Virus record (IMG/VR): IMGVR_UViG_3300036778_000017
Span: 1 to 64,000 of that record
Direction: 5' to 3' (one strand)
DNA length: 64,000 bases
From: a virus
Taxonomy: Duplodnaviria; Caudoviricetes
In this document: positions 1-63,495 of the stretch, one piece after another
How the letters are laid out: the number at the start of each line of letters is the position of its first letter
Numbering within the stretch: the stretch's first letter is position 1
Notes under the pieces: model-generated
What the model was told of the DNA's origin: nothing
The model's input: the letters and a program-made list of their open reading frames with translations, nothing else
Databases searched by the model: none
Position numbers and translations under genes: made by a program

Positions 1-722
1 CGCCTGATCCAGCCAGACTCCTCCTGAGCCTGATGGTCCCACGGCTTGCGCCTGCCGTGGAAGAATACGAGTCGTGTCTTGGCGCTGAACGAGCCCAGAC
101 GACGACAGTGCAGCGGATAGCTCGCCAACACCGGATACGGAATGTCAGTGTGGCCGGGCTTGCCGACCAATTTCCAGCTCAGCCACGACTGATCAGAACC
201 AAGAAATCCCGCCAGCTTCGCAGCCCTCGGCGACGTCTCAGGGTCAAACTCCTCCCATACGTGACGGAGTGTTCCGGCCGTGAACATCTGGAACGATCCA
301 TTGTAGACAGTGTCGTGAGGAGGGTGTCCAGCGAGTGCCCATCCGACGAATGTTCCTTCCCATCTGAATATTCCACTCAAGTCTCCCGTCACCACGGTGT
401 CCAGATCGAGGCTGACGATCCGCTGACCACGCGGTATTCCCATCTCACGCTGCGTCTTGATGTCGTAGATCTTCAGCCTGCGATAGCACGACGGCAGGTT
501 CTCCTTCGTGGCGTTCTCGAGCTCGCCGCAGTCCGGCCACAGCGGATACGTCTCGGTCTGCGTTATGCCTGTCGGGTCATCCGTCACGCACACGACGCGA
601 ACGTCGACGCTGCCCGCGTTCTTCTTGACTGCCTGTGACAGAACGTCCACGTGCTGCGCGGTGTACGATCGCTGAACGTTCGGCTTCCCCTGCCACTTCC
701 ACAGAACGACGTGTACAGTCAC
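1..722 (-). CDS. Glycosyltransferase, GT-A fold (GT8-like), truncated at window edge; missing from the ORF track
   Basis: Hand translation from GTG at 722, which overlaps the stop at 719-721: MTVHVVLWKWQGKP...RVVCVTDDP...IVSLDLDTVVTGDL (DxD)...YNGSFQMF...GSDQSWL...LVFFHGRRKPW. No stop before base 1. Confidence 0.8.
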   Translation of the reverse strand, partial: MTVHVVLWKWQGKPNVQRSYTAQHVDVLSQAVKKNAGSVDVRVVCVTDDPTGITQTETYPLWPDCGELENATKENLPSCYRRLKIYDIKTQREMGIPRGQRIVSLDLDTVVTGDLSGIFRWEGTFVGWALAGHPPHDTVYNGSFQMFTAGTLRHVWEEFDPETSPRAAKLAGFLGSDQSWLSWKLVGKPGHTDIPYPVLASYPLHCRRLGSFSAKTRLVFFHGRRKPWDHQAQEESGWIR

Positions 723-1459
723 ATGACCCTCGAGTAAGGCAGGCGATGCGGATTGATCGCCCGATAGCCCGGGCCTGTCCGCTTCTGATTGAGATACTGG
801 TTCTTGGCGGCCCAGAGTTCACCCTCCTTTCGGGTGAGGCCGCGCGTGTTGCAGTCGCCGATGTCGTTGATCTCGTACATCACCATCTTCCACGTGTCGA
901 TGTACTCCTCGATCAGGCCCCACGCCTTGGCGCACTTGCGAAAGTTCCCGTCACTGCCGTAGTAGCCGACGAAGTCCTCGTCGTAGCCACCCATCTCCCA
1001 GAAATCCTGCTTGTGGAACAGGAACGTGTTCGGATGCGAGTGATACGGAGTCCCAGAGCTCCTGCATCGTCCAGGCATGTAGTAGTGGCCACGCTCTGCA
1101 TAGTCGTCGACGAACTTGTTCATGCGCAGAGCCGCAGACGGGCTGAGCTCGTGGTCCATGTCTGTCATCAGGTTCCACATTGCCTCCGTCTGCTTCATCG
1201 CGATGTTGCGAGCACCGTCCTGTCCCCACGGCCTGTTCACCTGAACGCGAAAGACCATGAAGTCGACGGGGCGATGACTACCCCAGCGATCCCTGATCAC
1301 GGTGTCGGCAGCCACAGTCTGACTGCAGTCGTCCACGATGATGAACTGCATGCGACGCAGCACCGATGAGTCGTACTGCAACCACTTGTCGAGGTGATGC
1401 CGGAGCATCTGCGGATTGTCGAAGTATGCGTAGACGAGACCAATCTTCGCCAGCGTCAT
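719..1459 (-). CDS. Glycosyltransferase, GT-A fold (GT2/GT7-like)
   Basis: FIIVDDCSQ, WGQDGARNIAMK, MTDMDH (DxD), FWEMGGYDEDFVGYYGSDGNF. Start at MTLAKIG (ATGA overlap with the upstream stop). Confidence 0.85.
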   Translation of the reverse strand: MTLAKIGLVYAYFDNPQMLRHHLDKWLQYDSSVLRRMQFIIVDDCSQTVAADTVIRDRWGSHRPVDFMVFRVQVNRPWGQDGARNIAMKQTEAMWNLMTDMDHELSPSAALRMNKFVDDYAERGHYYMPGRCRSSGTPYHSHPNTFLFHKQDFWEMGGYDEDFVGYYGSDGNFRKCAKAWGLIEEYIDTWKMVMYEINDIGDCNTRGLTRKEGELWAAKNQYLNQKRTGPGYRAINPHRLPYSRVM

Positions 1460-2181
1460 GCGACGGGTCCGCGGAAGTAGTCTGTCATCAAGTTCGGCCT
1501 GTCCTTGTCGCCGTACAGCGACGAGTTGCCCGCGCCCAGCACGTGATCCACCAGACACGGAATGCGATACAGGATCTTGCGACCCTGACGGTTCAGGCAC
1601 TCGCCGATGATCAGGTCGATGTTCTTGTCCATGTCCTCGCGAGCAGCGTACTCCTGGAACGTCGCGTCGTTCTTCAGCCAGTCAGCCATCTCGCGATTGA
1701 ACACCAGACACTGAGCTCCCCACGTCTTCTTGCCGAACTGCATGTCCTTCCAGTGCCATCCTGCACCGAGTTTCATGCGACCGCGCGCGTCCTCCGCGGG
1801 CTTGGTCATGCGTCGACAAGCGAACAGCGACAGTGCGCCGACCATGTGCAGATCATTCTTGCTGCGCTCGAGATACAGCAGATCGCTCTGCAGAGCAGTA
1901 GACGCCCCCGCCTGCCACACTATGTCGTCCTCGCAGATCATGACCCACTCACTGTTCAGCATGCCGGACGACAGATGCCCGAGCGCCCTGATCCAGTTTC
2001 GCTTGTTGCCCAGAGGCACCTCGTTGGGGAGCCAGAAGATGCCGTCCTGCACCATCGGGTCACCGCCGTCGCTGAACACGACCACGTCTCGATTGAAGCC
2101 CGCCCGGCGGAGCGACGCGATCGACTTCTCGACCGTTGGGCGGGGGCGCGGAGCGGTTATGATGCCGATGCGAAGTGTCAT
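1456..2181 (-). CDS. Glycosyltransferase-like protein, GT-A fold
   Basis: WVMICEDDIVW acidic motif, GAQCLVF, IPCLVDHVLG. Start at MTLRIGII (ATGA overlap). Confidence 0.7.
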   Translation of the reverse strand: MTLRIGIITAPRPRPTVEKSIASLRRAGFNRDVVVFSDGGDPMVQDGIFWLPNEVPLGNKRNWIRALGHLSSGMLNSEWVMICEDDIVWQAGASTALQSDLLYLERSKNDLHMVGALSLFACRRMTKPAEDARGRMKLGAGWHWKDMQFGKKTWGAQCLVFNREMADWLKNDATFQEYAAREDMDKNIDLIIGECLNRQGRKILYRIPCLVDHVLGAGNSSLYGDKDRPNLMTDYFRGPVA

Positions 2182-2777
2182 CGAATCGTCACCCACCAGA
2201 ACGATGCGTCCAGCCGGAAGTTCTTGTTCCTCGGCTTCCCCTTGTTGATCGACACCTTGGCGCGACCGTGGAAGTGACGCTGAACCGCTGTCTCAACGCC
2301 CGGCCACGTGAAGTCATCACCCGCCATGGTGCCGCCCTTCTTCATCTTGGGCAGCCAGACCTCGATGTCCTTCATGACAGCGTCGTACGAGTGGTCGCCG
2401 TCCAGCATGATGAAGTCCACGCTCTGGTCCGGGAACCACCGGCTCGCCTCGACGCTCTCCATCTTCATGGCCTTCAGCCGATGAGCGATTGGCGCGACGT
2501 TGCGCTGGAAGATCTCGTACACTGGCGCGTCCAGACACCGAAAGTACTGAGTGTCGCGAAGGTCCGGGCCGCCGTCCTCCCACGGATCGACGCACACGAA
2601 CTCGATATCCTTGCCGCTGTTCTCGATCTCCACTCCCATGAGCGCTGCAGACCGACCGAGCCAGCTGCCGACCTCGATGAAGCGCGACCCGGTCGGGAAC
2701 TGTCGCACTGCGTCGATGTACAGCTGCTCGAACGCGGCCCATCCAGGAACATTCTTGTAGTAGTGCTGCATTGCCAT
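2178..2777 (-). CDS. Class I SAM-dependent methyltransferase (Methyltransf_24-like)
   Basis: FIEVGSWLGRS motif I, VDFIMLDGDHSYDAV, KKGGTMAGDDF. Confidence 0.85.
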   Translation of the reverse strand: MAMQHYYKNVPGWAAFEQLYIDAVRQFPTGSRFIEVGSWLGRSAALMGVEIENSGKDIEFVCVDPWEDGGPDLRDTQYFRCLDAPVYEIFQRNVAPIAHRLKAMKMESVEASRWFPDQSVDFIMLDGDHSYDAVMKDIEVWLPKMKKGGTMAGDDFTWPGVETAVQRHFHGRAKVSINKGKPRNKNFRLDASFWWVTIR

Positions 2778-2806
2778 TGTCCTACCCAGACTCTATTGGG
2801 AGCAGA

Positions 2807-2833
2807 GCGGAGACGAGGTGATGTCGCCTCCGC
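2807..2833 (-). terminator. 10-bp hairpin (one G-U pair) upstream of the methyltransferase/GT block; weak U-tract
   Basis: Minus strand GCGGAGGCGA-CATCACC-TCGTCTCCGC followed by TCTGCT. Confidence 0.4.
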
Positions 2834-2843
2834 CTTCTCCGCA

Positions 2844-3236
2844 CTACACCTTGGTCGCTGTCGTCAGGCCCGCGACGCCCGGAGGATGCCACGACTTGTT
2901 CCCGTGCTTGTCGATGACGGGAGTGCAGCCGTTGTCCTCGCGGCCCATGTTCGGATCGATCTTGGGGTGATCAGGGTCGTTGCCCTTCGCGGCCTCCTCG
3001 ATCTTCGCCATGTTCTTCGCGTGACCCTCTTCGTTGTGCTTCGACAGATTGTCGAGACGCTGCTTGACAGCGTCCTTCGCAGCGTCGCTGCCGAGCTCCA
3101 CGGTGTTGGTCTTGATGTCCTCGCCGGCAGTCTCAGAGAGCTTGTCGGCGTTCAACTTGTCCTGCGCCGCCTTGTTCGCAGCGGCTGCCTTGTCGGCAGC
3201 TGCCTGATCGGCAGCAACTTTTGCAGCATCAGCCAT
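2844..3236 (-). CDS. Hypothetical Ala/Asp/Lys-rich protein in the head module
   Basis: 130 aa ORF co-oriented with neighbours, RBS-like GGAGA upstream, ADQAAADKAAA repeats. Confidence 0.6.
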   Translation of the reverse strand: MADAAKVAADQAAADKAAAANKAAQDKLNADKLSETAGEDIKTNTVELGSDAAKDAVKQRLDNLSKHNEEGHAKNMAKIEEAAKGNDPDHPKIDPNMGREDNGCTPVIDKHGNKSWHPPGVAGLTTATKV

Positions 3237-3302
3237 GACTGGCCATCTCCATATTCGTTTCGCCTCTGGTAGAAACCGCTCGGACGAGGCACTGCCGACC
3301 GG

Positions 3303-3332
3303 TGCAGAAGGGGTCGCGAGACCCCCTCTGCG
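3303..3332. other. Intergenic stem-loop
   Basis: GCAGAaGGGGTC-GCGA-GACCCCcTCTGC; no U-run after it on the coding strand. Confidence 0.5.
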
Positions 3333-3343
3333 AAACAGATCCC

Positions 3344-3757
3344 TCAGGAAGCCGTCGGCGGAGCCGGAGGGGCGGAGCCGTCCCCCGCCGGAGCCGAGGT
3401 GTTCGCGTTGATCGCGGACACGACCTTGGCCTTGTTCGCGTCGACGGCGTCGAACAGCGCGTTGACCTTGGCCTGAACGGCGGGCGGCAGCGATCCGGCA
3501 GTGATGTCGTCCAGCTGCTTCTTGATGCCAGCGGTCAGGGTCGAGAGCGAGTCAATCTGCGTGCTCTCGTCCGAGACGTCAGCAAGGATCTCATCGATAT
3601 TGTGGTCGGCCATCTTGACTTCCTTCTCTAGTTGCTCCAGTCTGCGGAGGGTCTCCACCTGCAAGTTCACCACGGTGTGAGTGAGACTAAGCAGATGCAC
3701 TGCCCAACCCGGAGCTTCGGTTGGGAACAGCTTGAGGTCGATCTCTAACTTGGACAC
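3344..3757 (-). CDS. Hypothetical coiled-coil protein; second in-frame start at 3613 (MADHNIDEILADV)
   Basis: AAGGAG before GTG at 3757 and AAGGA before ATG at 3613. Confidence 0.6.
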   Translation of the reverse strand: MSKLEIDLKLFPTEAPGWAVHLLSLTHTVVNLQVETLRRLEQLEKEVKMADHNIDEILADVSDESTQIDSLSTLTAGIKKQLDDITAGSLPPAVQAKVNALFDAVDANKAKVVSAINANTSAPAGDGSAPPAPPTAS

Positions 3758-3770
3758 GGGGCGGTCTCCT

Positions 3771-4742
3771 TCAAAGAACCGGCACGAACACGCAGCGACA
3801 ACGCGGGTGTGCCGGAATGAGTGACCTCGCCCTGTTGATCTTGTACGGCCCGCCACGTGCGATCTTCTTGCAGACAGGACACACCTTGTTGTCTCCCGCA
3901 GTCTCGACGTTGACGAGGCCCCCGGCGACAGACGCTATCTCTAGCTCCTGCTTCCTGATCCGCTGGATCGTTCTCTGGCCGGGAGCCTCGCCTCGTCGAC
4001 TGCGAGCGCCCGCAGGCCCCGAGGGCGTGATCCTCGGAGCGCGTGCGTCGGTGGACCGTCGTGCGAGCAGGGTCTCGGGTAGCAGACCTACTCGCTGCAC
4101 TCCAGCCGACTGATAGACATCCAGCGTAGCCTCGCTGAACGCCTTTACCGTGATGAGCTCAACCAGCGCCGCAGAGCGGACGAGGCCCACCGAGTCAATA
4201 GCAGACTGAACAGCACTGGCGATGCGAGCGGGGCGATCGCCATGAAGAAGACCAGTGGCAGCTGCTCGGACAGCCTTCTGCGAGACCGCCTCGATGATGC
4301 CCTGGAGCTCGACCACTGCGAGCTGAAAGAGCGTCTCGATCCTGTCCCCCGCCAGCTGACTGGAGTATATGCCGACCTGTTGCTGCGCGAATGACTGTCC
4401 AGCCTCATATCCTCTCCTGATGTAGTCTCGCATGAACGAGCCGTCGCTGTGAAGCACCTGAGCGGCGGCCGTGTAGTCGAACCATCGCTGAAACATCTGC
4501 GTCTTGGTCGCTCCGCCCTGAATGGCGGGATTGGCGACGTTCATGAGACCGCGCGATGTCAGCGTCAGCAGATCCTGATCGACGATGGCCTTCCGCACCA
4601 GCACGCGCAGACCACGCCACTTGATCGCCAGCTGCGAGTAGAACGCAGTGCGAATGGACTTCGTGCCCGTCGGATCGAGCACGGCCTTCTTCGCGTCACA
4701 ACACGTGCACTGCCCGTCCGTGAAGGCGTGGCCTCGGTACAT
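3771..4742 (-). CDS. Head morphogenesis protein (SPP1 gp7 / Mu F-like)
   Basis: C-terminal AGDNKVCPVC...IPAHPRCRCVFVP signature; lies downstream of the portal; TGATG-coupled start. Confidence 0.85.
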   Translation of the reverse strand: MYRGHAFTDGQCTCCDAKKAVLDPTGTKSIRTAFYSQLAIKWRGLRVLVRKAIVDQDLLTLTSRGLMNVANPAIQGGATKTQMFQRWFDYTAAAQVLHSDGSFMRDYIRRGYEAGQSFAQQQVGIYSSQLAGDRIETLFQLAVVELQGIIEAVSQKAVRAAATGLLHGDRPARIASAVQSAIDSVGLVRSAALVELITVKAFSEATLDVYQSAGVQRVGLLPETLLARRSTDARAPRITPSGPAGARSRRGEAPGQRTIQRIRKQELEIASVAGGLVNVETAGDNKVCPVCKKIARGGPYKINRARSLIPAHPRCRCVFVPVL

Positions 4743-4858
4743 CAGCACAGGAACATCACCAGAACCATGACCACCACGATCAGGAACGGCCACGCCTGCC
4801 CGTTCAGCAGACGCTCCCACCACTTGCGCTCGTCAGGATACCACGGATACTCGGACAT
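4742..4858 (-). CDS. 38-aa single-TM protein (not in track)
   Basis: MSEYPWYPDERKWWERLLNGQAWPFLIVVVMVLVMFLC; TGATG overlaps at both ends. Confidence 0.6.
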   Translation of the reverse strand: MSEYPWYPDERKWWERLLNGQAWPFLIVVVMVLVMFLC

Positions 4859-5274
4859 CAGTTCTGATACCTCAGGGTTGAGTCCGCCAGAGCGAACGTG
4901 CCGCCGGTGCTCGACTGATTAGAGCCGAAGTCGATGTACGCCACGAGCTCATCTGCCGACGAGGCACCACCACGCGACTTGTAGTAGACGGCACCGCGAG
5001 CAGTGATGGTCGATGTCGGCAGGCTGAAGCCACCGAGCGTGATGTTCAGCCTGTCGTTCGCATCGTCCGGCGTGACGGTGATGGTCACCGCCGCGCCCCC
5101 GGCCGTGTATCCAGTTCCGCTCACCTCGTTGGTAACGTCGTTGCGAAAGTCGTGAGCGTCCTTGTCCGGCGTGTACGACGACGTGACGAGCATGCACTTG
5201 AACGTGTCACTGTCGAAGTCGATCGTGCCGGTGTTGGCGAACTTGATCGCGTGGTTGTATATCAGCGACGCCAT
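4858..5274 (-). CDS. Conserved phage structural protein (beta-rich)
   Basis: IDFDSDTFKCMLVTSSYTP...EVSGTGYTAGG...ITARGAVYYKSRGG...LVAYIDFG pattern, typical of virion genes. Confidence 0.65.
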   Translation of the reverse strand: MASLIYNHAIKFANTGTIDFDSDTFKCMLVTSSYTPDKDAHDFRNDVTNEVSGTGYTAGGAAVTITVTPDDANDRLNITLGGFSLPTSTITARGAVYYKSRGGASSADELVAYIDFGSNQSSTGGTFALADSTLRYQN

Positions 5275-5275
5275 G

Positions 5276-7357
5276 TCAGACTGTCTCCTCCGTCACCTGA
5301 TTGGGATCGAACCCCTGCACCTTCACCTCCTCGAAGATCTCTGGACCCAGTCTGATCTCGCCGGTGTACGGTTCGATCTGCGTGTAGTCCACGGTCCCTG
5401 CATCATACGTGATGGTGACGTGAGGCGTGTAGTCGTCGAAGCCCCAGCTGATGCCATCATCCTCACACCGATACATGATCGATCGATGCCGATACTGCAG
5501 ATCGGAGTTGCTGAACGCGAGTACGAGAGCCCGACCGAACTGCTCCATCACGCGCGGACCGCCGGGCCTGACAGTCAGTCCGCCATCTGCGTCTCCACCA
5601 CCGAAGTCATCGCTTCCAGCCTTGAGCCAGTCGACGGGAGCAGTGGAGTAGATGATGGTGACGTGCATGTCGGGAACGACTGTCTTGAGTCCCTGCGACT
5701 TGGCCCACTTGATGATGTCTGCGGAGTTGAGAACATCTCGTCGAACGTAAAGAGACCGAGGAGTAGACGCGTCCTGCAGTCGCCTGACGATCCCTGCGAC
5801 AGCTGCCTTCTGATCCTTCGCCGCAGTCTTCTTCGCCGGTTGTGTCTTCGCATTGCTGTTGCTCGCCGTCGGAGGTGGAGCATTCTGGTTCGCCGGAGCA
5901 GGCGGATTGTTCCCGGTCTGCGTCGGGTCGGTGTTCGCTTGGTTCGGATCGGCGACAGGCGGGGGCGCGGAGGCGGCAGCCTCGGCCTCTGCGGCGTGCG
6001 CGGCCACGAGGTCTGGATCGTCGTCGTACTCGTCGATGATCTGCTGCAGACCAGGATACGTGCCGTCCGAGATCAGCTGTGCCTCGCGAGCCTTCTTCAG
6101 AACCACGTCGTTCATCAGTCCTGCGTTCACGTCGATCTGGAACGCAGTCGCCTTCTGTCCGATGATAGTGCCGCGCTCGTTGTCGCTCAGCTGCCAGAGC
6201 GGCGACCAAGTGTAGTACATCCCAGCGTAGTCGTCCGTGCTGATGTCGCCGAGTGCAGACCGCACCAGCACGCGATCCAGCGGGTCGATGGCTGGCTGGA
6301 TGAATGTCTTCTGCTCGGTGGCGACGCGATCATAGTAGTTTCTCATGTCGCTGTCTCCAGTGGCGTTCAGCCCGGCCGGTGACTGAGACAGGAACCTCGT
6401 CGCTGGAACGTCGAACGCAGCAGACGCGATCAGGAGATAGGTCTTGAGAACGTCGGGCAGTCCCGAGAAGTTGTTCGTGATGCGCTCCCACTCCTCCTCC
6501 TTGTCCAGCAGGAGCATGGAGAACACGGACTTGGCCATGTTGGCGAACGAGAAGCGCTTCTTCAGACGCTGCTCGTACTCCTCGTTCATGATGTTCTCGG
6601 ACAGGCCCGGTATCTTGATGATGTCGAGCTTCGCCTCAGCGACCATCTGCGCGATGGACGCGGTCGTGCTGCCAGCGCCGATGACCGCGTCGCTGACGGA
6701 CTGGAGCACCGAGTCGCCCCATCCGTTGGCGATGTTCGGGTCTGGGATCTCATTGCCCTTGAACACCACGACGCGCGACGGGTGCAGCTGCACCAGCGAC
6801 TGATCAGGCGCGGTGTTGTTCTGTGCCGGCGAGTACCACGACGGCCGACCGTACCACGGAGACGTGATGTCCCAGATGATGGGACCAGTCTGCAGTTCCC
6901 ACCGACTCAGCGCGTGCAGGAACTTCAGCGATCCCTGCGTCACCTTGTCGTAGTCCAGCGGCTCCGTCGGGTCATCGTCGTTGACGCCCATCACTATTGC
7001 TCCGCCGCCGTACAGACGACCGAGGACCATGGCCTTCATGACCTTCAGCTGGACGCACATCGATTTCTCGAGATCCTCGATCTGCGAGACCTCCTCGTTG
7101 TCGGCCTGCCACGTTCGCCACTCGCGCGTCGCGTCGAACGCAGGAATGTCGCATCCCTTGCGCGCGATCCAGTCGCCACGATAGGCCGCCAGCAACTGCT
7201 GAGGCTCCATCATGCCGATGCCGAAGAACGTGCTGGTCGCCTTGTCCTTATCAGTGCCCAGCCCGGACAGCGCGTTGCGCAGACCATCGCCGAACATCCA
7301 CCCGATGTCGACGCCTGACGCCTTCGCTGAACCCTTGGATGTTGATCGCTTGGCCAT
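5276..7357 (-). CDS. Portal protein (DUF1073 type) with C-terminal Acb1-like 2H phosphoesterase domain
   Basis: Follows terL; WIARKGCDIPAFDATREWR, RLYGGGAI, LHPSRVVVFKG, PATRFLSQSPAGLNATGDSDMRNYYD; Pro/Ala/Gln linker; then MHVT...DDYTPHVT. Confidence 0.9.
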   Translation of the reverse strand: MAKRSTSKGSAKASGVDIGWMFGDGLRNALSGLGTDKDKATSTFFGIGMMEPQQLLAAYRGDWIARKGCDIPAFDATREWRTWQADNEEVSQIEDLEKSMCVQLKVMKAMVLGRLYGGGAIVMGVNDDDPTEPLDYDKVTQGSLKFLHALSRWELQTGPIIWDITSPWYGRPSWYSPAQNNTAPDQSLVQLHPSRVVVFKGNEIPDPNIANGWGDSVLQSVSDAVIGAGSTTASIAQMVAEAKLDIIKIPGLSENIMNEEYEQRLKKRFSFANMAKSVFSMLLLDKEEEWERITNNFSGLPDVLKTYLLIASAAFDVPATRFLSQSPAGLNATGDSDMRNYYDRVATEQKTFIQPAIDPLDRVLVRSALGDISTDDYAGMYYTWSPLWQLSDNERGTIIGQKATAFQIDVNAGLMNDVVLKKAREAQLISDGTYPGLQQIIDEYDDDPDLVAAHAAEAEAAASAPPPVADPNQANTDPTQTGNNPPAPANQNAPPPTASNSNAKTQPAKKTAAKDQKAAVAGIVRRLQDASTPRSLYVRRDVLNSADIIKWAKSQGLKTVVPDMHVTIIYSTAPVDWLKAGSDDFGGGDADGGLTVRPGGPRVMEQFGRALVLAFSNSDLQYRHRSIMYRCEDDGISWGFDDYTPHVTITYDAGTVDYTQIEPYTGEIRLGPEIFEEVKVQGFDPNQVTEETV

Positions 7358-7359
7358 CT

Positions 7360-8865
7360 CTACTCCGCCCACTTCATGGAGGTGTCATAGTTGTAGATCT
7401 TGCCGACGGTCTTGGCGAACGCTCCGCCAGCCGCGTCGACTTGATCCTTGTACTTGGAGGCAGGGAACGCCTCGTGCTCGTCCAGGAAGCTGTCGTTCCA
7501 TGGTGCGCGAAGCAGAGTGATATTCCCGTTCTGCCACTGAGCCGCATACGGATCTGCGCGCGTCTCCTTGTCTCCGCGCACCGGGTCTGCATACGCCTTG
7601 TATCCCTTCAGCATGGCGACGGAGCGCTCCGCGCTCTCCTTGCCGCCTGATCCCGGCTCCTGCTCCAGCCAGATCTCGATGCTCATCTTGCCCCACCGAG
7701 TGGCGTCCGCCTCGGCGGTGGACAGAATGGTCGCCTCCCTCTTGGACGCTGCCCACTGTCCGCGCTTCACGTTCTCGATGAACCATCCGCCCTCGAACAA
7801 CTCGTGCATCAGCACGCCAGCGGTGAACGCTCCGCCGTCCGTGGTTCCTGCCTTGTCCCAGTAGCGGATCGTCTTCTTGATGTCCTTCTTCTGCGGCACG
7901 ATGTCTGCGTATCGCACGCGTTCCAGCGGGAACATGCCACCCCCGACCACGATCGGGTTCTGCTGGTACAGCGACTGCCAGCTGGCGATGGTGTACGACT
8001 TCCGGCGCTCTGCGAGGAACGGCAGCGACTTGAAGCGAGGGAAGAGCGGAACACCCTTCACGCGACGCAGGTCGTATGGTCTGTCCGGCGACGGCTCCGT
8101 GCTGATGGCAGGGAACTTGAAGACCTTCGCCTCCGGGAAGCGAAGCATGAACCTTCCCGTCGGGTCGTCCACGTGCCATCGCGTGGCGGTCAGGATCATG
8201 CCGCCCTTGTCCGTGAAGCGCGAGAAGAAGTCATCCATCAGCCAGTCCCAGATCTTCTTGCGCTGAGCGGGGGAGGATGCAGCCTCGCGACCCTTCAGCG
8301 GGTCGTCGATGACGCCGATGTCTAGCGTCTTGCCGGTGATCTGGCCGTTGACTGTCGTGTTTCGGAAGTATCCCTTTCTGCCGACGTACTCCAGCAGTCG
8401 CGCGTTTCGCTGCGAGCGACCACTGATCGTGACGACGTTGGACGTGTTGATCATGGTCTCCGGGAAGACCATGTGGTACTTCGGATCGTCGTATATCCTC
8501 TGCAGCTGCCGATTGCAGTCCGTGCCGAGGTCGTTCGAGAACGACGCGTAGATTGTCTTCCAGTCAGGGTTCTTGCCTGCCATCCACGCGATGGCGTCCT
8601 GGATGTTGCGCGTCTTGCCGTGCTGCGGAGGAGCCTCGATGATGTACTTGGGTCGCCTGCCAGCGACGAGCTCGTCGAAGAAGTCCTGCAGTATGTAGCT
8701 GATCGCGCGCGGGAACCAACCCTCGATCAGGTCCTCGTCCATGAAGCGCCGAAACGCCCACAGATCAGACCGAGCCTCGACCGCGTATCCCTGAGCAACG
8801 AGGTCGAGGTCCTCCTCGCTGAAGCGTCGGCTGTTGTCTCCGATGCCTCGCTGATGGACGTTCAC
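7360..8865 (-). CDS. terL: Terminase large subunit
   Basis: Walker A APPQHGKT, GVIDDPLKG, TATRWHVDD, WQSLYQQNP, nuclease RYWDKAG and KDQVDA. Confidence 0.95.
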   Translation of the reverse strand: MNVHQRGIGDNSRRFSEEDLDLVAQGYAVEARSDLWAFRRFMDEDLIEGWFPRAISYILQDFFDELVAGRRPKYIIEAPPQHGKTRNIQDAIAWMAGKNPDWKTIYASFSNDLGTDCNRQLQRIYDDPKYHMVFPETMINTSNVVTISGRSQRNARLLEYVGRKGYFRNTTVNGQITGKTLDIGVIDDPLKGREAASSPAQRKKIWDWLMDDFFSRFTDKGGMILTATRWHVDDPTGRFMLRFPEAKVFKFPAISTEPSPDRPYDLRRVKGVPLFPRFKSLPFLAERRKSYTIASWQSLYQQNPIVVGGGMFPLERVRYADIVPQKKDIKKTIRYWDKAGTTDGGAFTAGVLMHELFEGGWFIENVKRGQWAASKREATILSTAEADATRWGKMSIEIWLEQEPGSGGKESAERSVAMLKGYKAYADPVRGDKETRADPYAAQWQNGNITLLRAPWNDSFLDEHEAFPASKYKDQVDAAGGAFAKTVGKIYNYDTSMKWAE

Positions 8866-9166: not shown

Positions 9167-10302
9167 CGTTCCTTCTCCTTGTATCTGTTGAGCATGGCAT
9201 GGATCTGCACGTGCCATCGCGCTATCTCTACCCGATGCTCCGGCGACACGTCCTCGCCGCAGTGCATGCAGATCGGTTGTTCCTGCTCGCCGCCGTTGAT
9301 GCAGACAGGACCGTAGTGCAGCGAGCGCCCGTTCGGTCTCTGTCCGCACAGATTGTAGATGCGATGCTTCACATGATCCCTGCGAAGTTCAGCAGCTTCA
9401 CGAACATGATGCCACCGAAGATGACGTAGCAGAGCAGACACAGAAGCCACTGAAGCTGACCGTCGGTGGCCAGCTTCTTGATTAGCCAGACACCGAGCAG
9501 CATGCAGATCGCCAGTACTGCCTCGATGATGATAAAACTCACTGCTCCCTGTGCAGACATGCCCAGATATCCTCCCGCTCTTGGTTGTGCGTGCCCGACT
9601 GGACCGTGGAGGTACCAGTACGTTCGCTGGACCCAGTCGGGCATCTGCTCGAGTGTCATCTAGTAGAACCAGCGAAACGCCAGATAGCTGGCGATGATGA
9701 GACCAGCCGCCGCGCATCCGTAGACAGTGATGCGCCGAAGCACGGCGTCGGTCGCGTCATCGAACTCGCTCACGACGTTGGAACCTTGACATCCACGTGG
9801 AGAGTGTTGATGGTTCCCTCCTCGCTGACTGACTGAGAGCCCCACATGCTCACCTCTACGGCGCGATTGGCTGGCCACGGCTGAAGGATGTTCTCCAGCG
9901 CGGCGAAGACCTGCGAGCGAGCAGTCTGCTCGGGCTCCGCCAGCTTGCTCATCTGCGCCATCTTCTGGTGATAGTCGTCCATGCACGCCTTCGCGTCGCC
10001 CTTGAATGAGTAGCTCCAGCTCATGATCCTGCTCCCTGCGGAGGAATGAGAGGTTTCGCTCTGGCCAACTCCGCCTTGGCCAGGATCTCGAGACTGTCGG
10101 CGATGCGCTTGATGTCGCTGAGCACCAGAGCACCGAGCGTGTGAAGAGCCTCCTCTCCAGCCTCGGCTGCCTCCTTCGCCATGGTCGCGGCCTGCGCGAC
10201 TGTGGACCCGCTCTTCAGTGCCTCGTCCACGCCTCGGTCGGCTGCCTTGAACGAACTCACGATCACGCCGAGCAGCGTGTGGATCTCATTATCAAGCGGC
10301 AT
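9163..10302 (-). other. Five small hypothetical genes between terL and terS: 9163-9372 (Cys-rich), 9369-9659 (2 TM), 9660-9773 (1 TM), 9770-10024, 10021-10302
   Basis: Tightly tiled ORFs, mostly with ATGA/GTGA overlaps. Confidence 0.6.
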
Positions 10303-10840
10303 CGTCTATGTCCTCCTCGTCGTTGTCTGTCTGCACCGGCTCGTCTGCGAGCGAGGCGTCTGCTCCCTCGTAGCCCCTGCCGTCGAGCTCGTCGTCGTAG
10401 TCCTCCTCCTGCCGCTCGTGAACAGCACGAGCGACGCCCTCGGCCAGCGACCGAAGAGCCGGGGGCACCGGAAGCCCGCGCTCGGTGAGGCGATCGACTG
10501 CCTCCTGCGCGGACAAGGTGCGGTCCGTCTTGTCGTGGACGTCGACCTGAAGGGGCATCACCTTCTCCAGCATGCGACCGAACACGGCTGGTTCAGCCCG
10601 CGACAGCCAGACGAGATACCCGACGGCTCCGTCCTTGCCCTTTCCGTCTCGACCAGAGGCCTCCGCAGCGGCGAGGATCGCCTCCTTCAGGCGAACCCCG
10701 AACTTGTTCTTGGCTCCCTTGGGTCTACCGAGACCCTCCTGTCCCTTCTTGAACGGAACGAGGTTCTGCGGATTTCCTCGACGACCCTTGGGCATCTTGG
10801 GAGCGCGAACACTCTTCCGCTTGTGAGAGGACTTCGCCAC
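10292..10840 (-). CDS. terS: Terminase small subunit
   Basis: PFKKGQEGLGRPKGAKNK N-terminal DNA-binding motif, acidic tail, first gene of the packaging operon. Confidence 0.7.
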   Translation of the reverse strand: MAKSSHKRKSVRAPKMPKGRRGNPQNLVPFKKGQEGLGRPKGAKNKFGVRLKEAILAAAEASGRDGKGKDGAVGYLVWLSRAEPAVFGRMLEKVMPLQVDVHDKTDRTLSAQEAVDRLTERGLPVPPALRSLAEGVARAVHERQEEDYDDELDGRGYEGADASLADEPVQTDNDEEDIDDAA

Positions 10841-10881
10841 GGATCCTTCCTCAGTTTTCCTGCGCGTTAAATATCAGGGAC

Positions 10882-10893
10882 CACGCTACCGCC
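10882..10893 (-). promoter_or_regulatory. ops element (RfaH recruitment site) GGCGGTAGCGTG
   Basis: Plus strand cacgctaccgcc is the exact reverse complement of the canonical 12-nt ops; intergenic, between the rfaH-like stop and the terS start. Confidence 0.8.
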
Positions 10894-10949
10894 GCCCCGG
10901 ACTGAATGCCGAGGGATTGCAGAGCGCCTTGCGCATGTGTCGAGCTCTT

Positions 10950-11459
10950 TCAGGCGAGCTCGGTGACCCGATACTCCGTCGTGCGAACCTCGCGGCCCAG
11001 CAGACTGAAGAGTACCTCGACCCGACCACTCGACTGCATCTGTGTCAGCAGACCCGCCGAACCGGCGAACCGCCCTGAGCGGGGGACAACTGTGTCCCCG
11101 ACACGATGCAGCTTGGTGACAGGATCGATGTAGTATCCCGCGTCATCTACGCTATCGCTGAGGAAGAACTGCAAGTCGTCATCCGCCAACTTGGCAGGCT
11201 CACCGCAGTTCATCAGCAGCGAAGAGACGCCGCGAGTATTCCTGATCGACCACCACGCCTTCGTCTCCCTGACGAACACGTAGCCCTCGAACAGTGCGAC
11301 AACACGACGGACGCCAAGACGGTTCGGCTCAGTCCTCATCAGCGGAAGCTCGACCTCGTAGCCCTGTCGGCTCAGGTGCCGACGAGCCTCGAGCTCGCTG
11401 TGCTCGTGAGTCGTCGCCACGAGCCATCCCAACTTTCGCTTCCGTGAGTTCCTCGCCAT
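10950..11459 (-). CDS. NusG-family transcription antiterminator, RfaH-like (NGN + KOW)
   Basis: WLVATT...ARRHLSRQG...LFEGYVFV...IRNTRGVSSLL; KOW region GDTVVPRSGRFAG...RVEVLFSLLGREV. Confidence 0.9.
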   Translation of the reverse strand: MARNSRKRKLGWLVATTHEHSELEARRHLSRQGYEVELPLMRTEPNRLGVRRVVALFEGYVFVRETKAWWSIRNTRGVSSLLMNCGEPAKLADDDLQFFLSDSVDDAGYYIDPVTKLHRVGDTVVPRSGRFAGSAGLLTQMQSSGRVEVLFSLLGREVRTTEYRVTELA

Positions 11460-11909
11460 TCCGCCCTCGCCCGCCGCTGGCCAGCTGCCCAACACAACCC
11501 ACAACCGCCAGCGGCCAAACCCTGCCACGGCATTCCGCTGATCCGCAAGGCCCCCTTCGGCGGCGGAACCCTCGCGCCTAATCGCGGCTCCGCCAATGAT
11601 GAGCGCATGCACAAGCGCACGTTCATCACGGGCATCCCCGTGTCGCGTGAATTGCTTGCAACCTGCATTTTTCCGTTTGCCCAGCAATTACAAGCACTTG
11701 ACATGCAACCACCCCCGCCCTCCTGCAACCACTTTCGGGCATGATCCGTCACCTGAACGATGACTTTGTATCGCAAAGCGGATGCACCGGGCAGTCACAA
11801 ACAAAAAGTTATGCACAGCCCCCGGCGGACCACTTTTTCGGCTGCGCTCCGCCCCGGCCGGGCCTAAAATGCCCGCTCTTGTGGTTGCAACTTGTGGGGT
11901 AATACAACC
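11460..11909. promoter_or_regulatory. Divergent control region with TGCAACCAC repeats
   Basis: Non-coding gap between divergent genes; AT-rich patches; TTGACA at 11698-11703; repeats at 11704, 11724 and 11881 (inverted). Confidence 0.6.
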
Positions 11910-49438: not shown

Positions 49439-49855
49439 CTAGCTGTCCGCTCCGATGTTGAACGTGACGGAGCCACTGAGAAACTTCACGCTCGATCCGA
49501 TGGCGACAGTGATCGGACCGCCCGCCACTGCTCGAGACGCGTACATGTGACCGGCCGAGGCGTCGTCGAACAGCGCGAAGTGAGAGATGTTGACCGGCCC
49601 CGTCTCCGACAGACCCCAGTCAACGTCGATGTTGGACGTCAGCAGATGCAGCGCTCCGGACGCCAGTGCAGCGAACGTGATGGACTGCCGCTTGCCCGCG
49701 CTCTTGACGGAGGCCCCGACCTCGGTGCCCGTGGTCTTCGGGTTGCCGTTGAACAGCCCGAGAAAGAGTGTCGTCGGCCGTGACGGCATGTCGGCCTGAT
49801 TGTTCAGCCAGCGAAGCGTGATATTGCCGAAGTATGGAGTGAGATCAGAAGCCAT
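49439..49855 (-). CDS. Phage structural (tail-associated) protein
   Basis: FLGLFNGNP..GTEV...RQSITF...ISHFALFDDASAG pattern. Confidence 0.6.
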   Translation of the reverse strand: MASDLTPYFGNITLRWLNNQADMPSRPTTLFLGLFNGNPKTTGTEVGASVKSAGKRQSITFAALASGALHLLTSNIDVDWGLSETGPVNISHFALFDDASAGHMYASRAVAGGPITVAIGSSVKFLSGSVTFNIGADS

Positions 49856-49864
49856 GGTGCGCCC

Positions 49865-51182
49865 TCAGTAGTAGTGGAAGATAACTGGAATGCTGGTGAA
49901 CGCTGCGGCAAAGATGCTCGCGTAGATCCACACGCGACCCTTCCAGTCCGGCGGCGTGAAGATGTAGATGCCCCGGAGAAGTCCGAGACAGAAGATTGTG
50001 CCTGCGACGAGATAACTGATGGTGTCGAACATGGTCGTCGCCGCGAACATGCCGACACCGGCCGTTGTCTGTGCCAGAGTATCGTCAATGTGGATGACAT
50101 GCACGTGCAGACCATAGACGTATGTCTTCCACACGCTGAACGTCCGGTACGCCTCGGCACCGAACACCCAGAAGAGAACGCACGCAGTTGGAACACCGGG
50201 CAGTCCAGCCCAGCGCTGATAGTTGGCAGGACCAGACGTGGCCCAAGTGTCCCACAGAAACACCGAGATCATGATCGTCAGGGTGAACAGCAGAATGAAA
50301 GCCACACCATTGATACACTCACGCATGAACGCTTGATGATTGACAATGAAGTCGATCACTTCAGTTCCTCTCGACGAATGGCCATCCGCTCAAAATCAGC
50401 GAATGAGTTTGTCCTGGACTTGGCTATCTGGATGGACCGCCGCAGGGCCTCGTTGCCACGCGACCGTCTTGCAATTGATCTTTGTACTCTCTCGACAATC
50501 TTGCCCACGTCGTGGGCCATGTCGTCTGTCTCTGCATTGAGGTATTCATCGCGGGTGGCATGTGTGACGCGAAACATCGCGAGGAACCTTTCCAATTGCC
50601 TGATCATATCTTGCGCCTTCTACTGACGGTTGTTACCTGCCCCAGCAAGTTGCGCATTTCAACGACCTGAGCCTGTCCCGCCCCACGAATGGCATCTGCC
50701 ATCTTGTTGGACATGTCGTCTATGGACTTTCTCACGTCGCTCACGTACTGCAGTGAGAGAGTTCTGTTCTCCATCACGGCAGCGTTCAAGGCACGGATAG
50801 CATCAGCCATGCTCTCCACCGCCTTCGCACTGGCGGCATTGTGATCCTTGATGTTATCATACTGCGCAAGGATCGATACCTTGAGTAACTCGAACGCCTG
50901 CGCCTGCTTCTCGAGCAGACGCGCCTGTTCCTCCGTCAGTTCGTTTCTCTCGTCAGTGACTTTCAGCATGTCGGTGAGAACCTTGCCGGTGTCACTGAGC
51001 GTCTTGTTCAAGGTGTCCCGCTCCTGCAGTCGGTATCCATAGATCTTGTCTGCGCGGGCCTGCATCTGTCTGATGTAGGCTATGGACGCGGCCTGCGTCC
51101 CGCATAGAACGAAGATTATGGCTCCCGGCAAGCCGAGACCCTCCAGTATGTGGACGATCCACTCAGGGATCATTGGTATCAC
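49865..51182 (-). other. Three lysis-adjacent genes: 49865-50359 (4 TM), 50356-50607, 50604-51182 (TM + coiled coil, holin candidate)
   Basis: Hydrophobic segments; directly downstream of the spanins. Confidence 0.55.
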
Positions 51183-51394
51183 CTCTTGGGCGTGAAGCCC
51201 GAACAGTGCAGTGATTGACCATACTGATTGTGAGCAAGGATCTCACGAGCAGTGATGTCTGTGAACTGATCATCCTTCGACACCCTGATGGCTGACCATC
51301 CGGTGCAGACGCCTCCACCACAGCCCGCGAGACTAGTCGCGACGCCACTTATCAAGATCAGTCTTAACAGTCTTCGGGTCCATCTTCGCGACAT
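51179..51394 (-). CDS. o-spanin (Rz1-like lipoprotein)
   Basis: Lipobox LAGC after a basic/hydrophobic leader; overlaps the i-spanin gene. Confidence 0.75.
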   Translation of the reverse strand: MSRRWTRRLLRLILISGVATSLAGCGGGVCTGWSAIRVSKDDQFTDITAREILAHNQYGQSLHCSGFTPKR

Positions 51395-51665
51395 TGTCGT
51401 CAACCTCCTTTCGCTTCTTGAGCGCGTCTGCGTCACGCTGCCTCTCGCGCTCCTCCTCGTCGTGACTGCCCTTGTATCTTCCTCCCACGTATGCGAGGAA
51501 TATCGCAGCGATGCCGCCGAGCAGCCACTTGAGCCAGCCCGGCAGAATGTTCCACAGCGGTATCAGCACTGGCGAGAAGAAGTAGAACAGCGCGCCAGCG
51601 CCGAGCACCGCAACGACAACGTATACCCAGACGGGTATGTGGTCGACGATGAAGTTCCAGATCAT
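51333..51665 (-). CDS. i-spanin (Rz-like)
   Basis: N-terminal TM segments and a charged helical tail; follows the endolysin. Confidence 0.65.
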   Translation of the reverse strand: MIWNFIVDHIPVWVYVVVAVLGAGALFYFFSPVLIPLWNILPGWLKWLLGGIAAIFLAYVGGRYKGSHDEEERERQRDADALKKRKEVDDNVAKMDPKTVKTDLDKWRRD

Positions 51666-52663
51666 GCTGCCTTCTTAACCTCCGTATCCCCCGCCGTGCG
51701 TCCGCTCTGCGTCACGGTTCCCGGAGCGATGTTGCCGGTCGCCGATCCCTGAGCGGTCGGGTCGACGTAGTGCGCCTTCACCTCGTCCGGAACGATGTCG
51801 TTCTGGTTCGCGCCCTGAACGGGGGCTAGGTTGAGGGCGTCGGTGAGTTCGGCGTTCTTCTTGCGAGCGTACCACGACCAGAGCAGTCCGCCGCCCGTGA
51901 GCAGTGCGCCCGCGACCACGATGCCGATCAGGACCTGATCGACGAGGTGCGAGTTGCCCTGAAGCGGCTGAAGTGTGGACTGGATGGTCGTCAGCGTCGT
52001 CGTGACGGCACCGCCCGCCGAGGTCGCGTCCGCTGGAGCAGTCGAGACAAGTGGCTTCGCGTCCACAAGCGTCGCCTTCTTGTTCATGTTCGGAGACCAG
52101 ACGACCTCCGGACCCACGGAGCCCGATGCCCAAGCCTGACCGATCTTCTTCAGCTGGTTGACGCGGCTCGTCCAGCCATTGCCGAAGTGGTAGAACGTCT
52201 TCAGGCCCTGAAGGAACGCCATGCGCCGCGCGAGAATGTTGGCGACCAGAGCATCATCGTCGTTGTAGTTGTAGATGGCCTGCATCGTGACGTCGCCCAG
52301 CACGCCGTCCGGGTTTAGACCAAGAGCGCGCTGTACCCACTTGATGGACTGGCCAGGACCAGAGTTGATGGCACCGTCGGCAACGACGACGTCGATGCCG
52401 GGAGGGAGCTCGTCGAACCTGATCTTCTGACCGTAGTTCTGCCAGTAGATCGCGTCGCGCTCCGCGTCCGTCATCGTGAAGACGTCGCGGTTTGGCTTGC
52501 CGTTCTTCTTGAGCCAAGCCGAGAACTCACGCTGGATCACACCCTGATTGGTGCGACCGCCCGGATCGATTGGGTCGTCGTCCTTGCCACCCTCGAACCT
52601 CAACTCGATCTTCATCGCGTCAGCCCAAGAGTGCTGCTTTCCGTGGCTATCCACTTGTGTCAT
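51662..52663 (-). CDS. Endolysin, GH108 with PG-binding domain and C-terminal TM region
   Basis: FEGGKDDDPIDPGGRTNQGV, DGAINSGPG, FGNGWTSRV. Confidence 0.9.
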   Translation of the reverse strand: MTQVDSHGKQHSWADAMKIELRFEGGKDDDPIDPGGRTNQGVIQREFSAWLKKNGKPNRDVFTMTDAERDAIYWQNYGQKIRFDELPPGIDVVVADGAINSGPGQSIKWVQRALGLNPDGVLGDVTMQAIYNYNDDDALVANILARRMAFLQGLKTFYHFGNGWTSRVNQLKKIGQAWASGSVGPEVVWSPNMNKKATLVDAKPLVSTAPADATSAGGAVTTTLTTIQSTLQPLQGNSHLVDQVLIGIVVAGALLTGGGLLWSWYARKKNAELTDALNLAPVQGANQNDIVPDEVKAHYVDPTAQGSATGNIAPGTVTQSGRTAGDTEVKKAA

Positions 52664-55476: not shown

Positions 55477-56609
55477 GTCCAGCTGAACCTTACTCTGCCG
55501 CTCGCACCAGCACCGTTGCCCGAACCGCTCGTGTCTGTCACGCCCGCTCCCACCGAGAAGGCGACAGGATCACCATTCGCGGGACCATCCACACCCTTCG
55601 TCAGCACGTGCTTCACGTAAGCACCGCCTCCGCCTCCGGGCTGCTTCGCCTGAGACGGAGAACCCGATATGTGCTGCGTCTGAAACGCCGAGCCAGATCC
55701 ACCGCCGCCCGGAGCAGCGCCGGAGATCCCTGAGTTGAAGTACCCGCCAACGATCGACGGGCTGGAGACTGCTGATCCACCCGCGCCTCCGTGAGGAGAC
55801 GAGCCGCCAGCGCCGGTCACGCCGCTGGCATCAGTCGTGGGAGACGGCGTGCCACCAGCCTGACCGTTCGTGTTCTCTGTGTTGCCGCCAGACGCGACAC
55901 CGCCCGCACCGCCAGCGCCAGAGTTGAACACGTTCGACGTGGACTTCTTTCCTCCGCCAGCCGTAAGGCTGTACGTGGTGCACGTCGTGTCGTGACCGTC
56001 AGCGCCCAGCGACGTCAGACCACCAGTGGCACCAGATCCCCAGAGCTCGATGATGAACTTGTCAGTGTACGACCCGTCACTTGGAGCATTGAACGTTCCA
56101 GCGTGCGAGTTGAACTGCTGGAAATTCGGACCACTGTCGTCCAGAGTGCCCGGATCCGTGCCGCCCGGAGGACCATCCTCTGGTCTGCTGGATCGTTGTA
56201 ACAACCGATAGTATCGCTTGTTGATGCCCGTGGCCGTCAGGTCTGTCAGGAGAACATGGTTCGACACCATCTCCTCCTGCGTGTACTGCCCGAACAGGAT
56301 GTCCCCCGCTTGCAGCGTGTCGGCAGGAGATGTCGCTGGGTTGTCTGATCCAATCAGCACGGCGGCCCCGATCGTCAGCGCAGTCTCGACCTCGATGATG
56401 AACGCGTTCATGTGAACGGGGGTGCCGAAGTCTAGCTCGAGCGCCGCGAATGAGTGCCCGACGTTGAGCGCACCACCGGCCACGAACGGATCAGGATACG
56501 TGCGAAGGTCGGTCGCGAGCGGAGCCCAGCCCGTGACCTCGTCGCCGTCGACCATGTTGGCGACAACGCCTGTCTTCGTAGAGAAGCCGAACTGCTTGAC
56601 GATTGGCAT
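55473..56609 (-). CDS. Tail protein with Gly-rich domain
   Basis: IELWGSGATGG...GGGGGAY...FSVGAG...GRVRFSW. Confidence 0.7.
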   Translation of the reverse strand: MPIVKQFGFSTKTGVVANMVDGDEVTGWAPLATDLRTYPDPFVAGGALNVGHSFAALELDFGTPVHMNAFIIEVETALTIGAAVLIGSDNPATSPADTLQAGDILFGQYTQEEMVSNHVLLTDLTATGINKRYYRLLQRSSRPEDGPPGGTDPGTLDDSGPNFQQFNSHAGTFNAPSDGSYTDKFIIELWGSGATGGLTSLGADGHDTTCTTYSLTAGGGKKSTSNVFNSGAGGAGGVASGGNTENTNGQAGGTPSPTTDASGVTGAGGSSPHGGAGGSAVSSPSIVGGYFNSGISGAAPGGGGSGSAFQTQHISGSPSQAKQPGGGGGAYVKHVLTKGVDGPANGDPVAFSVGAGVTDTSGSGNGAGASGRVRFSWT

Positions 56610-57433: not shown

Positions 57434-57443
57434 CTATCTTCCC

Positions 57444-57836
57444 CTATGTGCCCGGAGCATTCTTGATGACACCCTTCTGGATGACCTCAGTGTTGTCCGT
57501 ATTCGTGTTGCCCTGGAACTTCAGCGAGATCTTCGCACCAGTCTTCGGGTCTCGACCTTGATAGGCCGTCATCTGCTCGGTGTCGATGAACTGCGAAGTG
57601 TCGTCCGGATTGTGCACGCGCACCGTGTCTGTCGTGCGCTGCGTCTCGTTGAAGTTCGCGGGCTTCACCGTCGACTGATCCTGTGCGGAGAAGTCGAACA
57701 GCGTGGCACCGGAGCGGCCCCACGTGACGCCCGGATTATCGATTATCTTTGGCGTCGCGAGCAGCTGCGTCGGCACGCCCGGTCGAATGGGCGTCAGCTG
57801 TGTCGGTCGTACGACGAACTCGAGATGGTTAGGCAT
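57444..57836 (-). CDS. Tail-module hypothetical protein
   Basis: RVHNPDD..QFID motif; position. Confidence 0.55.
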   Translation of the reverse strand: MPNHLEFVVRPTQLTPIRPGVPTQLLATPKIIDNPGVTWGRSGATLFDFSAQDQSTVKPANFNETQRTTDTVRVHNPDDTSQFIDTEQMTAYQGRDPKTGAKISLKFQGNTNTDNTEVIQKGVIKNAPGT

Positions 57837-60168: not shown

Positions 60169-60169
60169 G

Positions 60170-63272: not shown

Positions 63273-63495
63273 TGTCCGACAGCTTCTTTCTAAACTCCGT
63301 GTATCCGCGCTTGTCAGCGTGCTGAGCAGCGCGATACAGATCCATCACTCGCGCGTCTCGATCCAACTCCTCGCGGGATATCAGTTCGAGCCACCCGCTG
63401 AGTTGTCGAGGAGTACTGTTCCAGCAGTCTTCCTCTAGCCTTCCGGCGGCGACACACCGTTGGATTGCCCGGGCGATATCGTACCCGGAGCCCAT
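63262..63495 (-). CDS. Tail assembly chaperone second frame (gpT-like)
   Basis: WNSTPRQLSGWL motif; overlaps the chaperone gene in the -1 frame. Confidence 0.55.
   Translation of the reverse strand: MGSGYDIARAIQRCVAAGRLEEDCWNSTPRQLSGWLELISREELDRDARVMDLYRAAQHADKRGYTEFRKKLSDNGR

Follow-up and report, generated by a model that had tools for sequence, protein, structure and literature searches.

The 64,000-nucleotide window analyzed here comprises bases 1-64000 of the 73,980-bp IMG/VR virus record IMGVR_UViG_3300036778_000017, a linear, soil-type record of ~74 kb from an uncultured phage, rated 96% complete. On its minus strand the window carries a gene for an RfaH-like NusG paralog, P0002 (hereafter the factor), followed by an exact copy of the 12-nt ops element of Escherichia coli. 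The two probably constitute a phage-borne, cis-encoded RfaH-like/ops module, which would load a processivity factor onto the host RNA polymerase for transcription of the late gene block. This reading is favored because ops is exact and unique, the protein is closest to RfaH, the element is conserved in 11 of 19 related loci and changes together with the protein, the adjoining hairpin covaries, comparable cases occur in locus L110 and on a Xanthobacteraceae contig, and the late genes form a long single-strand block. The core of the locus consists of four features:

10950..11459, minus strand: RfaH-like NusG paralog P0002, 169 aa, NGN and KOW domains (Pfam, NCBIfam, PHROG, PDB profile and AlphaFold2 (AF2) evidence)
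10895-10914, minus strand: GC-rich hairpin CCTCGG-N8-CCGGGG, ending 2 nt before ops G1 (one spacer base) and folding at -8.7 kcal/mol
10882-10893, minus strand (non-template, coding strand of the late genes): ops element GGCGGTAGCGTG (exact match, conservation, covariance model)
10292..10840, minus strand: first gene after ops, P0001, 182 aa, with a basic N-terminus and an acidic tail; phrog_11043 (unknown function)

The ops element, its hairpin and the late operon

A first-pass annotation of the sequence had placed GGCGGTAGCGTG on the minus strand at 10882-10893, 42 nt before the next start, with the end of the NusG-family gene at 10950 and a CCTCGG/CCGGGG hairpin ahead of the element; coordinates, motifs and hairpin were all confirmed. 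The gap between the factor stop and the GTG of the next gene at 10840 measures 109 nt, and as in ops/JUMPStart leaders, GGCGGTAGnnTG precedes the opening gene of a long operon and is carried by the non-template strand. Neither the window nor the whole record contains a second copy of the 12-mer. It appeared in none of 100 dinucleotide shuffles of the window, and the probability of an exact match within the gap was estimated from base composition at ~2e-5, in agreement with the order of 1e-5 given earlier. With one mismatch allowed, 31 of the 100 shuffles gave a match somewhere in the window. The ops element is real and non-random. It would be transcribed in the leader if the promoter lies upstream of the factor gene or at an ACAT motif just past the factor stop. 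A short ATTT run, semi-conserved across loci (alignment A3), lies ~10 nt past the element at 10866-10874 on the minus strand; in the E. coli waaQ leader, a T-run follows ops directly.

To assess conservation, 19 distinct related loci were examined. The core GGCGGTAGNNTG is kept 46-75 nt past the factor stop in 11 of them (L002, L008, L011, L012, L017, L018, L020, L021, L023, L024 and L025), in which the proteins are 47-68% identical, and the gap as a whole shows just 38% mean column identity. The first-pass proposal was to be abandoned if ops was not conserved among homologous phages, and it withstood this comparison. About seven of the 11 canonical loci carry the exact 12-mer, and in the rest positions 9-12 read CATG or CCTG. 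Searched with a covariance model built on the hairpin and ops together, each locus gave exactly one copy, and the rest of the record gave none. The remaining eight loci carry a different short GC-clamped motif at the same place.

A GC hairpin of 5-7 bp stands at the same distance, 2 nt before G1, in all 18 loci of the hairpin alignment. In a model-fitted alignment, 80.6% of cells were paired, compared with 65.5% in shuffles, and the covariation score was 0.424 against 0.175, a value reached by none of 500 shuffles. Both-side changes were seen at four of the six pairs, every slid register scored lower, and the loop sequences vary freely between loci. The likeness to JUMPStart pointed out in the first-pass annotation was borne out as well: since the E. 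coli waaQ leader reads TCAGG-N11-CCTGG and then directly GGCGGTAGCGTG, the phage element, judged by sequence, reproduces the whole JUMPStart layout. The ops pause positions are C9 and U11 (PMC5995543). In the phage, C9 and U11 follow the 3' base of the hairpin by 11 nt and 13 nt, respectively, spacings near that used by hairpin-stabilized pauses. The phage hairpin possibly prolongs the ops pause, or it could instead limit backtracking.

Comparable arrangements were found outside this group. In L110 (minus strand, ~11808-12360 of the reversed locus), which belongs to another phage lineage, the protein has H10, R23, Q24 and TRGV, the exact ops overlaps the factor stop codon, and a P27-type small terminase-like gene follows ~250 nt downstream. 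L007 has GCGGTAGC after a hairpin and ahead of a small terminase-like gene, and in L005 the factor gene abuts the small terminase gene. In cells, contig L155 of a Xanthobacteraceae metagenome-assembled genome (MAG; G003:C560:493-2727) encodes an RfaH-like protein with HLSRQ that scores 114.5 bits against TIGR01955; 185 nt past this gene stand a hairpin, one base, the exact GGCGGTAGCGTG and an ATAAATT run, and the contig stops short of the target genes. On L004 (3462-3700), classed as a viral contig, a hairpin, TGCGGTAGCTCG and a gene resembling NAD-dependent epimerases come after an RfaH-like gene, a context of polysaccharide type and not of virion type. A scan of viral contigs with the 15-mer GGNGGCGGTAGCGTG was also tried as a diagnostic. 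The motif alone is not diagnostic, because just one (L110) of at least 115 matches adjoins a NusG-like gene.

The minus-strand block runs from 11459 down to base 1 and, according to the gene map, resumes at the far end of the record, down to ~49.4 kb. The GC content at third codon positions is 0.70-0.83 in the minus frames against 0.52-0.60 in the plus frames, which identifies the minus frames as the real ones. If the record ends join, the single-strand virion and lysis block measures ~36 kb. The gene order is common to every fetched relative: divergent small genes, a ~400-nt intergenic region, the factor gene, a ~100-nt gap, a conserved 160-200-aa protein, small genes, the large terminase and a portal-Acb1 fusion. 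By this synteny, the NusG paralog gene stands in all fetched loci at the 5' end of a long operon whose genes share one strand and belong to a mobile element.

The factor and its variation across related loci

The open reading frame of P0002 extends from the ATG at 11459 to the TGA stop at 10952-10950. It matches the Pfam NusG NGN domain over residues 12-97 (9e-14) and belongs to PHROG 6386, 'transcription antiterminator'. Among the NCBIfam models, RfaH (TIGR01955) scored best (66.7 bits), followed by UpxY (37.1), NusG (28) and LoaP (17.7), all of these scores being far below the respective cut-offs (144.5 for RfaH, 100 for UpxY and 125 for LoaP). A PDB profile search with the factor family recovered RfaH structures at 1.5e-20 and NusG at 1e-12, the profile aligning to RfaH residues 2-158. 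P0002 is 29.5% identical to E. coli RfaH over 149 aa and 24.5% identical to E. coli NusG over 106 aa. AF2 modeling with the family alignment reached a predicted local distance difference test (pLDDT) score of 89.5 and gave an NGN domain and a beta-barrel KOW domain at 122-164, the NGN plus single-KOW architecture of RfaH-type proteins of ~160 aa. A single-sequence AF2 model (pLDDT 37) was unusable and was discarded.

The phage factors form a tight family, as just nine clusters among 1.84 billion representative proteins scored below 1e-30; beyond these lies a broad RfaH-like continuum. In the tree the family is one clade (support 99), apart from the clade with E. coli RfaH (support 96). A tblastn search with the factor against 50,697 deposited phage genomes returned weak human-gut matches only, so that collection contains no cultured member of the family; E. 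coli RfaH, used as the query, retrieved almost nothing from phages there. A profile search of genome contigs with the factor alignment recovered no relatives.

RfaH reads G5 and T6 of ops with K10, H20, R23, Q24 and R73 (PMC5995543). At these positions P0002 has H, H, R, Q and R (H18, H28, R31, Q32 and R75 in its own numbering), so that four of the five are kept and K10 is replaced by H; the family majority is H, E, K, Q and R. The HLSRQ (residues 28-32) and RNTRGV (72-77) segments highlighted by the first-pass annotation are indeed kept and align with HLERQ and NATRGV of RfaH. The DNA-reading face of P0002 appears to resemble that of RfaH, but the protein does not qualify as an RfaH equivalog.

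Protein and element vary together across the loci. In seven of the eight loci that lack ops, position 10 is G, W or F and position 24 is A or V (RfaH numbering); the combinations are as follows:

Window and 11 canonical relatives: H10, Q24 and TRGV kept; canonical ops
L022, L009 and L001: G10, A or V at 24, TRGV kept; GGCAGCGCATTG (GCGCAGCGCGTG in L001)
L027, L030 and L033: W or F at 10, A24, TRGV altered; GGCGAAGC
L026: W10, A24, TRGV altered (IPVV); CTCGGTGCCATG
L019, the exception: H10, Q24 and TRGV kept; GCCGGAGGCGTG; G19-Q20 where others have R-E

Six non-canonical loci group in the tree as a single nested clade (support 90), with L033 and L019 placed separately. On this topology, the canonical site appears to have been lost at least two to three times, and Q24 twice, each time together with the site. 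The combination of W or F at position 10 and A24 with GGCGAAGC occurs in two separate lineages, which we regard as more telling than a sign test. We take the joint change of protein and element as suggestive, not as proven.

All variants keep the TG of positions 11-12 as well as a loop of 3-4 nt clamped by G-C ... G-C, which is what a reader of a non-template-strand hairpin would need. GCGAAGC is a very stable DNA mini-hairpin. Folding of the 15-mers with DNA parameters was uninformative as a test, the true E. coli ops itself reaching only -0.7 kcal/mol, so the mini-hairpin is proposed for all classes from inspection of the sequences alone. Tentatively, and with more doubt than confidence, we suggest that the loci represent a natural series of matched pairs, namely H10/Q24 with a GGTA loop (GGCGGTAGC), G10/[A,V]24 with GCAGCGC and [W,F]10/A24 with GCGAAGC, in which a non-metamorphic relative of RfaH repeatedly re-tuned its code for reading non-template DNA. 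Each site would be a mini-hairpin with a GC clamp, equally far in every class from an RNA hairpin that assists pausing and from the TG pause. If this is true, the pairs would be orthogonal antiterminator/site pairs and would offer a way to read the recognition code of NusG paralogs.

Proposed mechanism and competing explanations

In the proposed mechanism, the factor gene would be the first gene of the packaging, virion and lysis transcription unit, with a JUMPStart-like leader right after it. The host RNA polymerase would pause at ops, where the TG at positions 11-12, and possibly also the RNA hairpin, would assist the pause, and the non-template strand would expose a small G4-A7 loop. The NGN domain of the factor would read this loop via H18, H28, R31, Q32 and R75. 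The factor would then stay on the polymerase and exclude the host NusG, which would reduce pausing and Rho-dependent termination over ~36 kb of late genes. From the gene order we infer, with the first-pass annotation, that the switch is a late one and is used instead of a Q/N system.

A number of observations weigh against this mechanism. Among the DNA-reading residues, most of the family has E for H20, and K10 is replaced by H. The autoinhibition determinants of RfaH are E48, I93 and F130, and the Rho loop of NusG is I164-F165-G166 (PMC7593976). A position-by-position comparison with RfaH showed that S47-E48 is deleted in 42 of 43 family members, that I93 and F130 are both replaced by L, and that H65-T66-T67 reads xWW. 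The C-terminal domain, whose alpha/beta switch the first-pass annotation had proposed to model, came out as a beta-barrel in AF2, a weak test for fold switching. With E48 missing, xWW in place of the H65/T66 region and a beta-barrel model for the C-terminal domain, ops-gated release of autoinhibition is not supported for the phage factor. The first-pass label 'RfaH-like' stands, with the qualification that the score below the equivalog cut-off (66.7 vs 144.5), the loss of E48 and the beta-barrel model set the protein apart from an RfaH equivalog. The KOW loop reads [M/L]-L-G-R in the factor family, I-F-G-R in NusG and L-I-N-K in RfaH; it appears nearer to NusG than to RfaH, and the factor may still bind Rho. 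The first late gene, whose GTG is preceded by GAGGAAGGA at 10844-10852, differs from typical RfaH targets in its good Shine-Dalgarno sequence. Terminator prediction gave no intrinsic terminator for the late strand of the block. L019 has GCCGGAGGCGTG despite H10 and Q24, and the co-change rests on two independent events, for which the sign test (p = 0.5) cannot reach significance.

Four other explanations were weighed against the cis-encoded module. That the 12-mer is a chance match has a negligible probability and is already refuted by conservation: GC-rich genomes do contain many near matches, as the one-mismatch shuffles illustrate, but no shuffle yielded the exact element, and the motif recurs in the same place in 11 related loci as well as in a second lineage. 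The RNA hairpin might instead be the working signal, either as a LoaP-like RNA site or in mRNA stability or processing, with the 12-mer being just a consensus pause or incidental. LoaP-type paralogs are reported to bind leader RNA hairpins, and the phage hairpin covaries and is kept in 18 of 18 aligned loci, including those without ops. Nevertheless, its loop sequences are free to vary, ops matches that of E. coli at 12 of 12 positions across proteins only 47-68% identical, the LoaP model gives only 17.7 bits, and the same hairpin occurs in the E. coli JUMPStart, whose action goes through DNA; we therefore consider a primary role of the hairpin unlikely.

The phage ops might also be read by the host's own RfaH, with the phage factor doing another job, such as general NusG replacement or host shut-off. 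The Xanthobacteraceae contig, from candidate host relatives, pairs an RfaH-like gene with an identical layout of ops and hairpin, Alphaproteobacteria account for 18% of rfaH genes (PMC7593976), and the phage protein is without autoinhibition determinants. This explanation is nonetheless decidedly improbable, given that gene and element are adjacent in every locus, in at least two phage lineages, and that the element changes where positions 10 and 24 of the phage protein change, which is not expected if a host factor reads it. Finally, the factor might be a NusG-like terminator helper or gate, binding Rho via the KOW loop and restraining late transcription or acting on host genes. Its [M/L]-L-G-R does keep the G-R of the Rho-contact loop of NusG, and its C-terminal domain models as a NusG-like beta-barrel. 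We judge such a role very improbable: F165 is replaced by L, the best family match is RfaH and not NusG, a position heading 36 kb of essential virion genes is in keeping with an activator, and every characterized cis-encoded NusG paralog cited in PMC7593976 is an antiterminator.

The proposed module shares features with several known systems. Like RfaH of E. coli with ops/JUMPStart (waa, hly, kps and tra operons), it combines an NGN and a KOW domain with an identical 12-nt ops that precedes a long operon on the non-template strand; ops adjoins a stem-loop in both, R23, Q24 and R73 are kept, and so is H20 in this phage. In contrast, RfaH in E. coli is encoded monocistronically and operates in trans, whereas the phage factor is encoded in cis at the head of its target, is only 29.5% identical, lacks E48, has xWW at the H65/T66 region and H for K10, and carries a C-terminal domain modeled as a beta-barrel; its target consists of virion genes with Shine-Dalgarno sites. 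Bacteroides UpxY, Myxococcus TaA and the plasmid tra paralogs (PMC7593976) resemble the phage factor in being encoded first in, or inside, the long operon presumably served and on a mobile element, but UpxY differs by model score (37 bits vs a cut-off of 100), and an ops-type DNA site identical to the enterobacterial one was not described for this group in the literature examined. Bacillus LoaP is likewise a specialized NusG paralog next to its target, with a leader hairpin nearby. LoaP is reported to read RNA, whereas the phage locus keeps a DNA-type ops and unconserved hairpin loops, and its factor reaches 17.7 bits against the LoaP cut-off of 125.

Phage late-gene antitermination is known mainly from Q, N and put. 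The arrangement is similar in outline to lambda Q at pR'/qut, where the antiterminator gene also lies immediately upstream of its loading site and of the lysis, packaging and virion genes, and where loading occurs at a promoter-proximal pause, as proposed for the phage factor. There is no homology to Q, as Pfam and PHROG find only NusG-type families in P0002; no conserved terminator after ops, analogous to lambda tR', is common to the related loci; and Q loads via a promoter DNA site and sigma, while the phage factor would load via a non-template-strand hairpin. As the first-pass annotation had supposed, no characterized phage RfaH/ops pair was found in the literature searched. An RfaH-like factor with the enterobacterial ops in phages probably infecting Alphaproteobacteria would make the ops code far older and wider than the enteric regulon and, if the reading is true, phages would use this code as a late switch. 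The variant loci would be natural specificity swaps and possible orthogonal processivity switches, and the apparent lack of autoinhibition raises the question of how specific loading works without fold switching.

Neighboring features and the possible host

The following features surround the module:

11657-63, 11704-10 and 11724-30, minus strand: three GGTTGCA repeats, candidate regulator sites, in the divergent intergenic region upstream of the factor gene
11523..11549, minus strand: CTTGCG-N15-GTGGCA motif, candidate promoter, 64-90 nt upstream of the factor start; columns conserved in alignment A4
10931..10945, minus strand: GCTC-N-ACAT(GCGC) motif just past the factor stop, conserved in closer relatives (alignment A3)
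10924-10934, minus strand: small GCGC-NNN-GCGC hairpin after the ACAT motif (sequence)
7360..8865, minus strand: large terminase (Pfam Terminase_6N and Terminase_6C; phrog_38 at 1.9e-70)
5276..7372, minus strand: portal protein (Phage_portal_3, 5.5e-97) with a C-terminal Acb1 (anti-CBASS phosphodiesterase) domain (3e-32)
1..5275, minus strand: rest of the same-strand block, with a head morphogenesis protein, a methyltransferase-like gene and others (GC content at third codon positions, PHROG matches)
49439..64000, minus strand: tail and lysis genes, with tape measure, endolysin and tail fibre (gene map; the strand run continues to 73,842 of the record)

Alignment A4 of the ~400-nt region upstream of the factor gene brings the GGTTGCA/GGTTGTAA motifs of 12 related loci into register, with repeats of the form GGTTG[C/T]A. 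The same alignment shows a conserved CAAAAACAA-N-CTTAGA stretch, and together with the GGTTGCA repeats it looks like operator sites of some regulator. No sigma-70 consensus site was found; the CTTGCG-N15-GTGGCA motif is a candidate promoter, and the GCTC-N-ACAT motif could be the -10 region of an internal promoter. The first late gene, P0001, had no Pfam family match; there is a DUF5681-like lead, and its family is conserved (57% mean column identity in alignment A6). By position, the basis of its first-pass label terS, it is a candidate small terminase.

The alphaproteobacterial host suggested at first pass, within Hyphomicrobiales, is plausible for these phages. GcrA is a family of alphaproteobacterial cell-cycle regulators. 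The hint comes from a GcrA-domain gene (PF07750) between the first late gene and the terminase of one relative (L023:4119-4874) and from genome matches of the P0001 family, which were confined to Kaistia, a Rhizobiales MAG and a Xanthobacteraceae MAG; prophage-like matches of this family in Hyphomicrobiales were without factor and without ops. The large terminase was also considered as a host indicator and gives no host, having no close cultured relative in the deposited phage collection (at most 41% identity to any).

The portal-Acb1 fusion was also called in the relatives L017 and L025. A DNA methyltransferase-like gene (2178-2777, minus strand; phrog_2675, 2e-20) lies inside the head and packaging block, and the head protease and the major head protein are encoded in the continuation of the record up to 73,842. 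A 540-aa protein encoded at 43889-45511 on the minus strand matches the AEP domain of TOTE conflict systems (PF22548, 1.7e-7) and is probably the primase of the phage.

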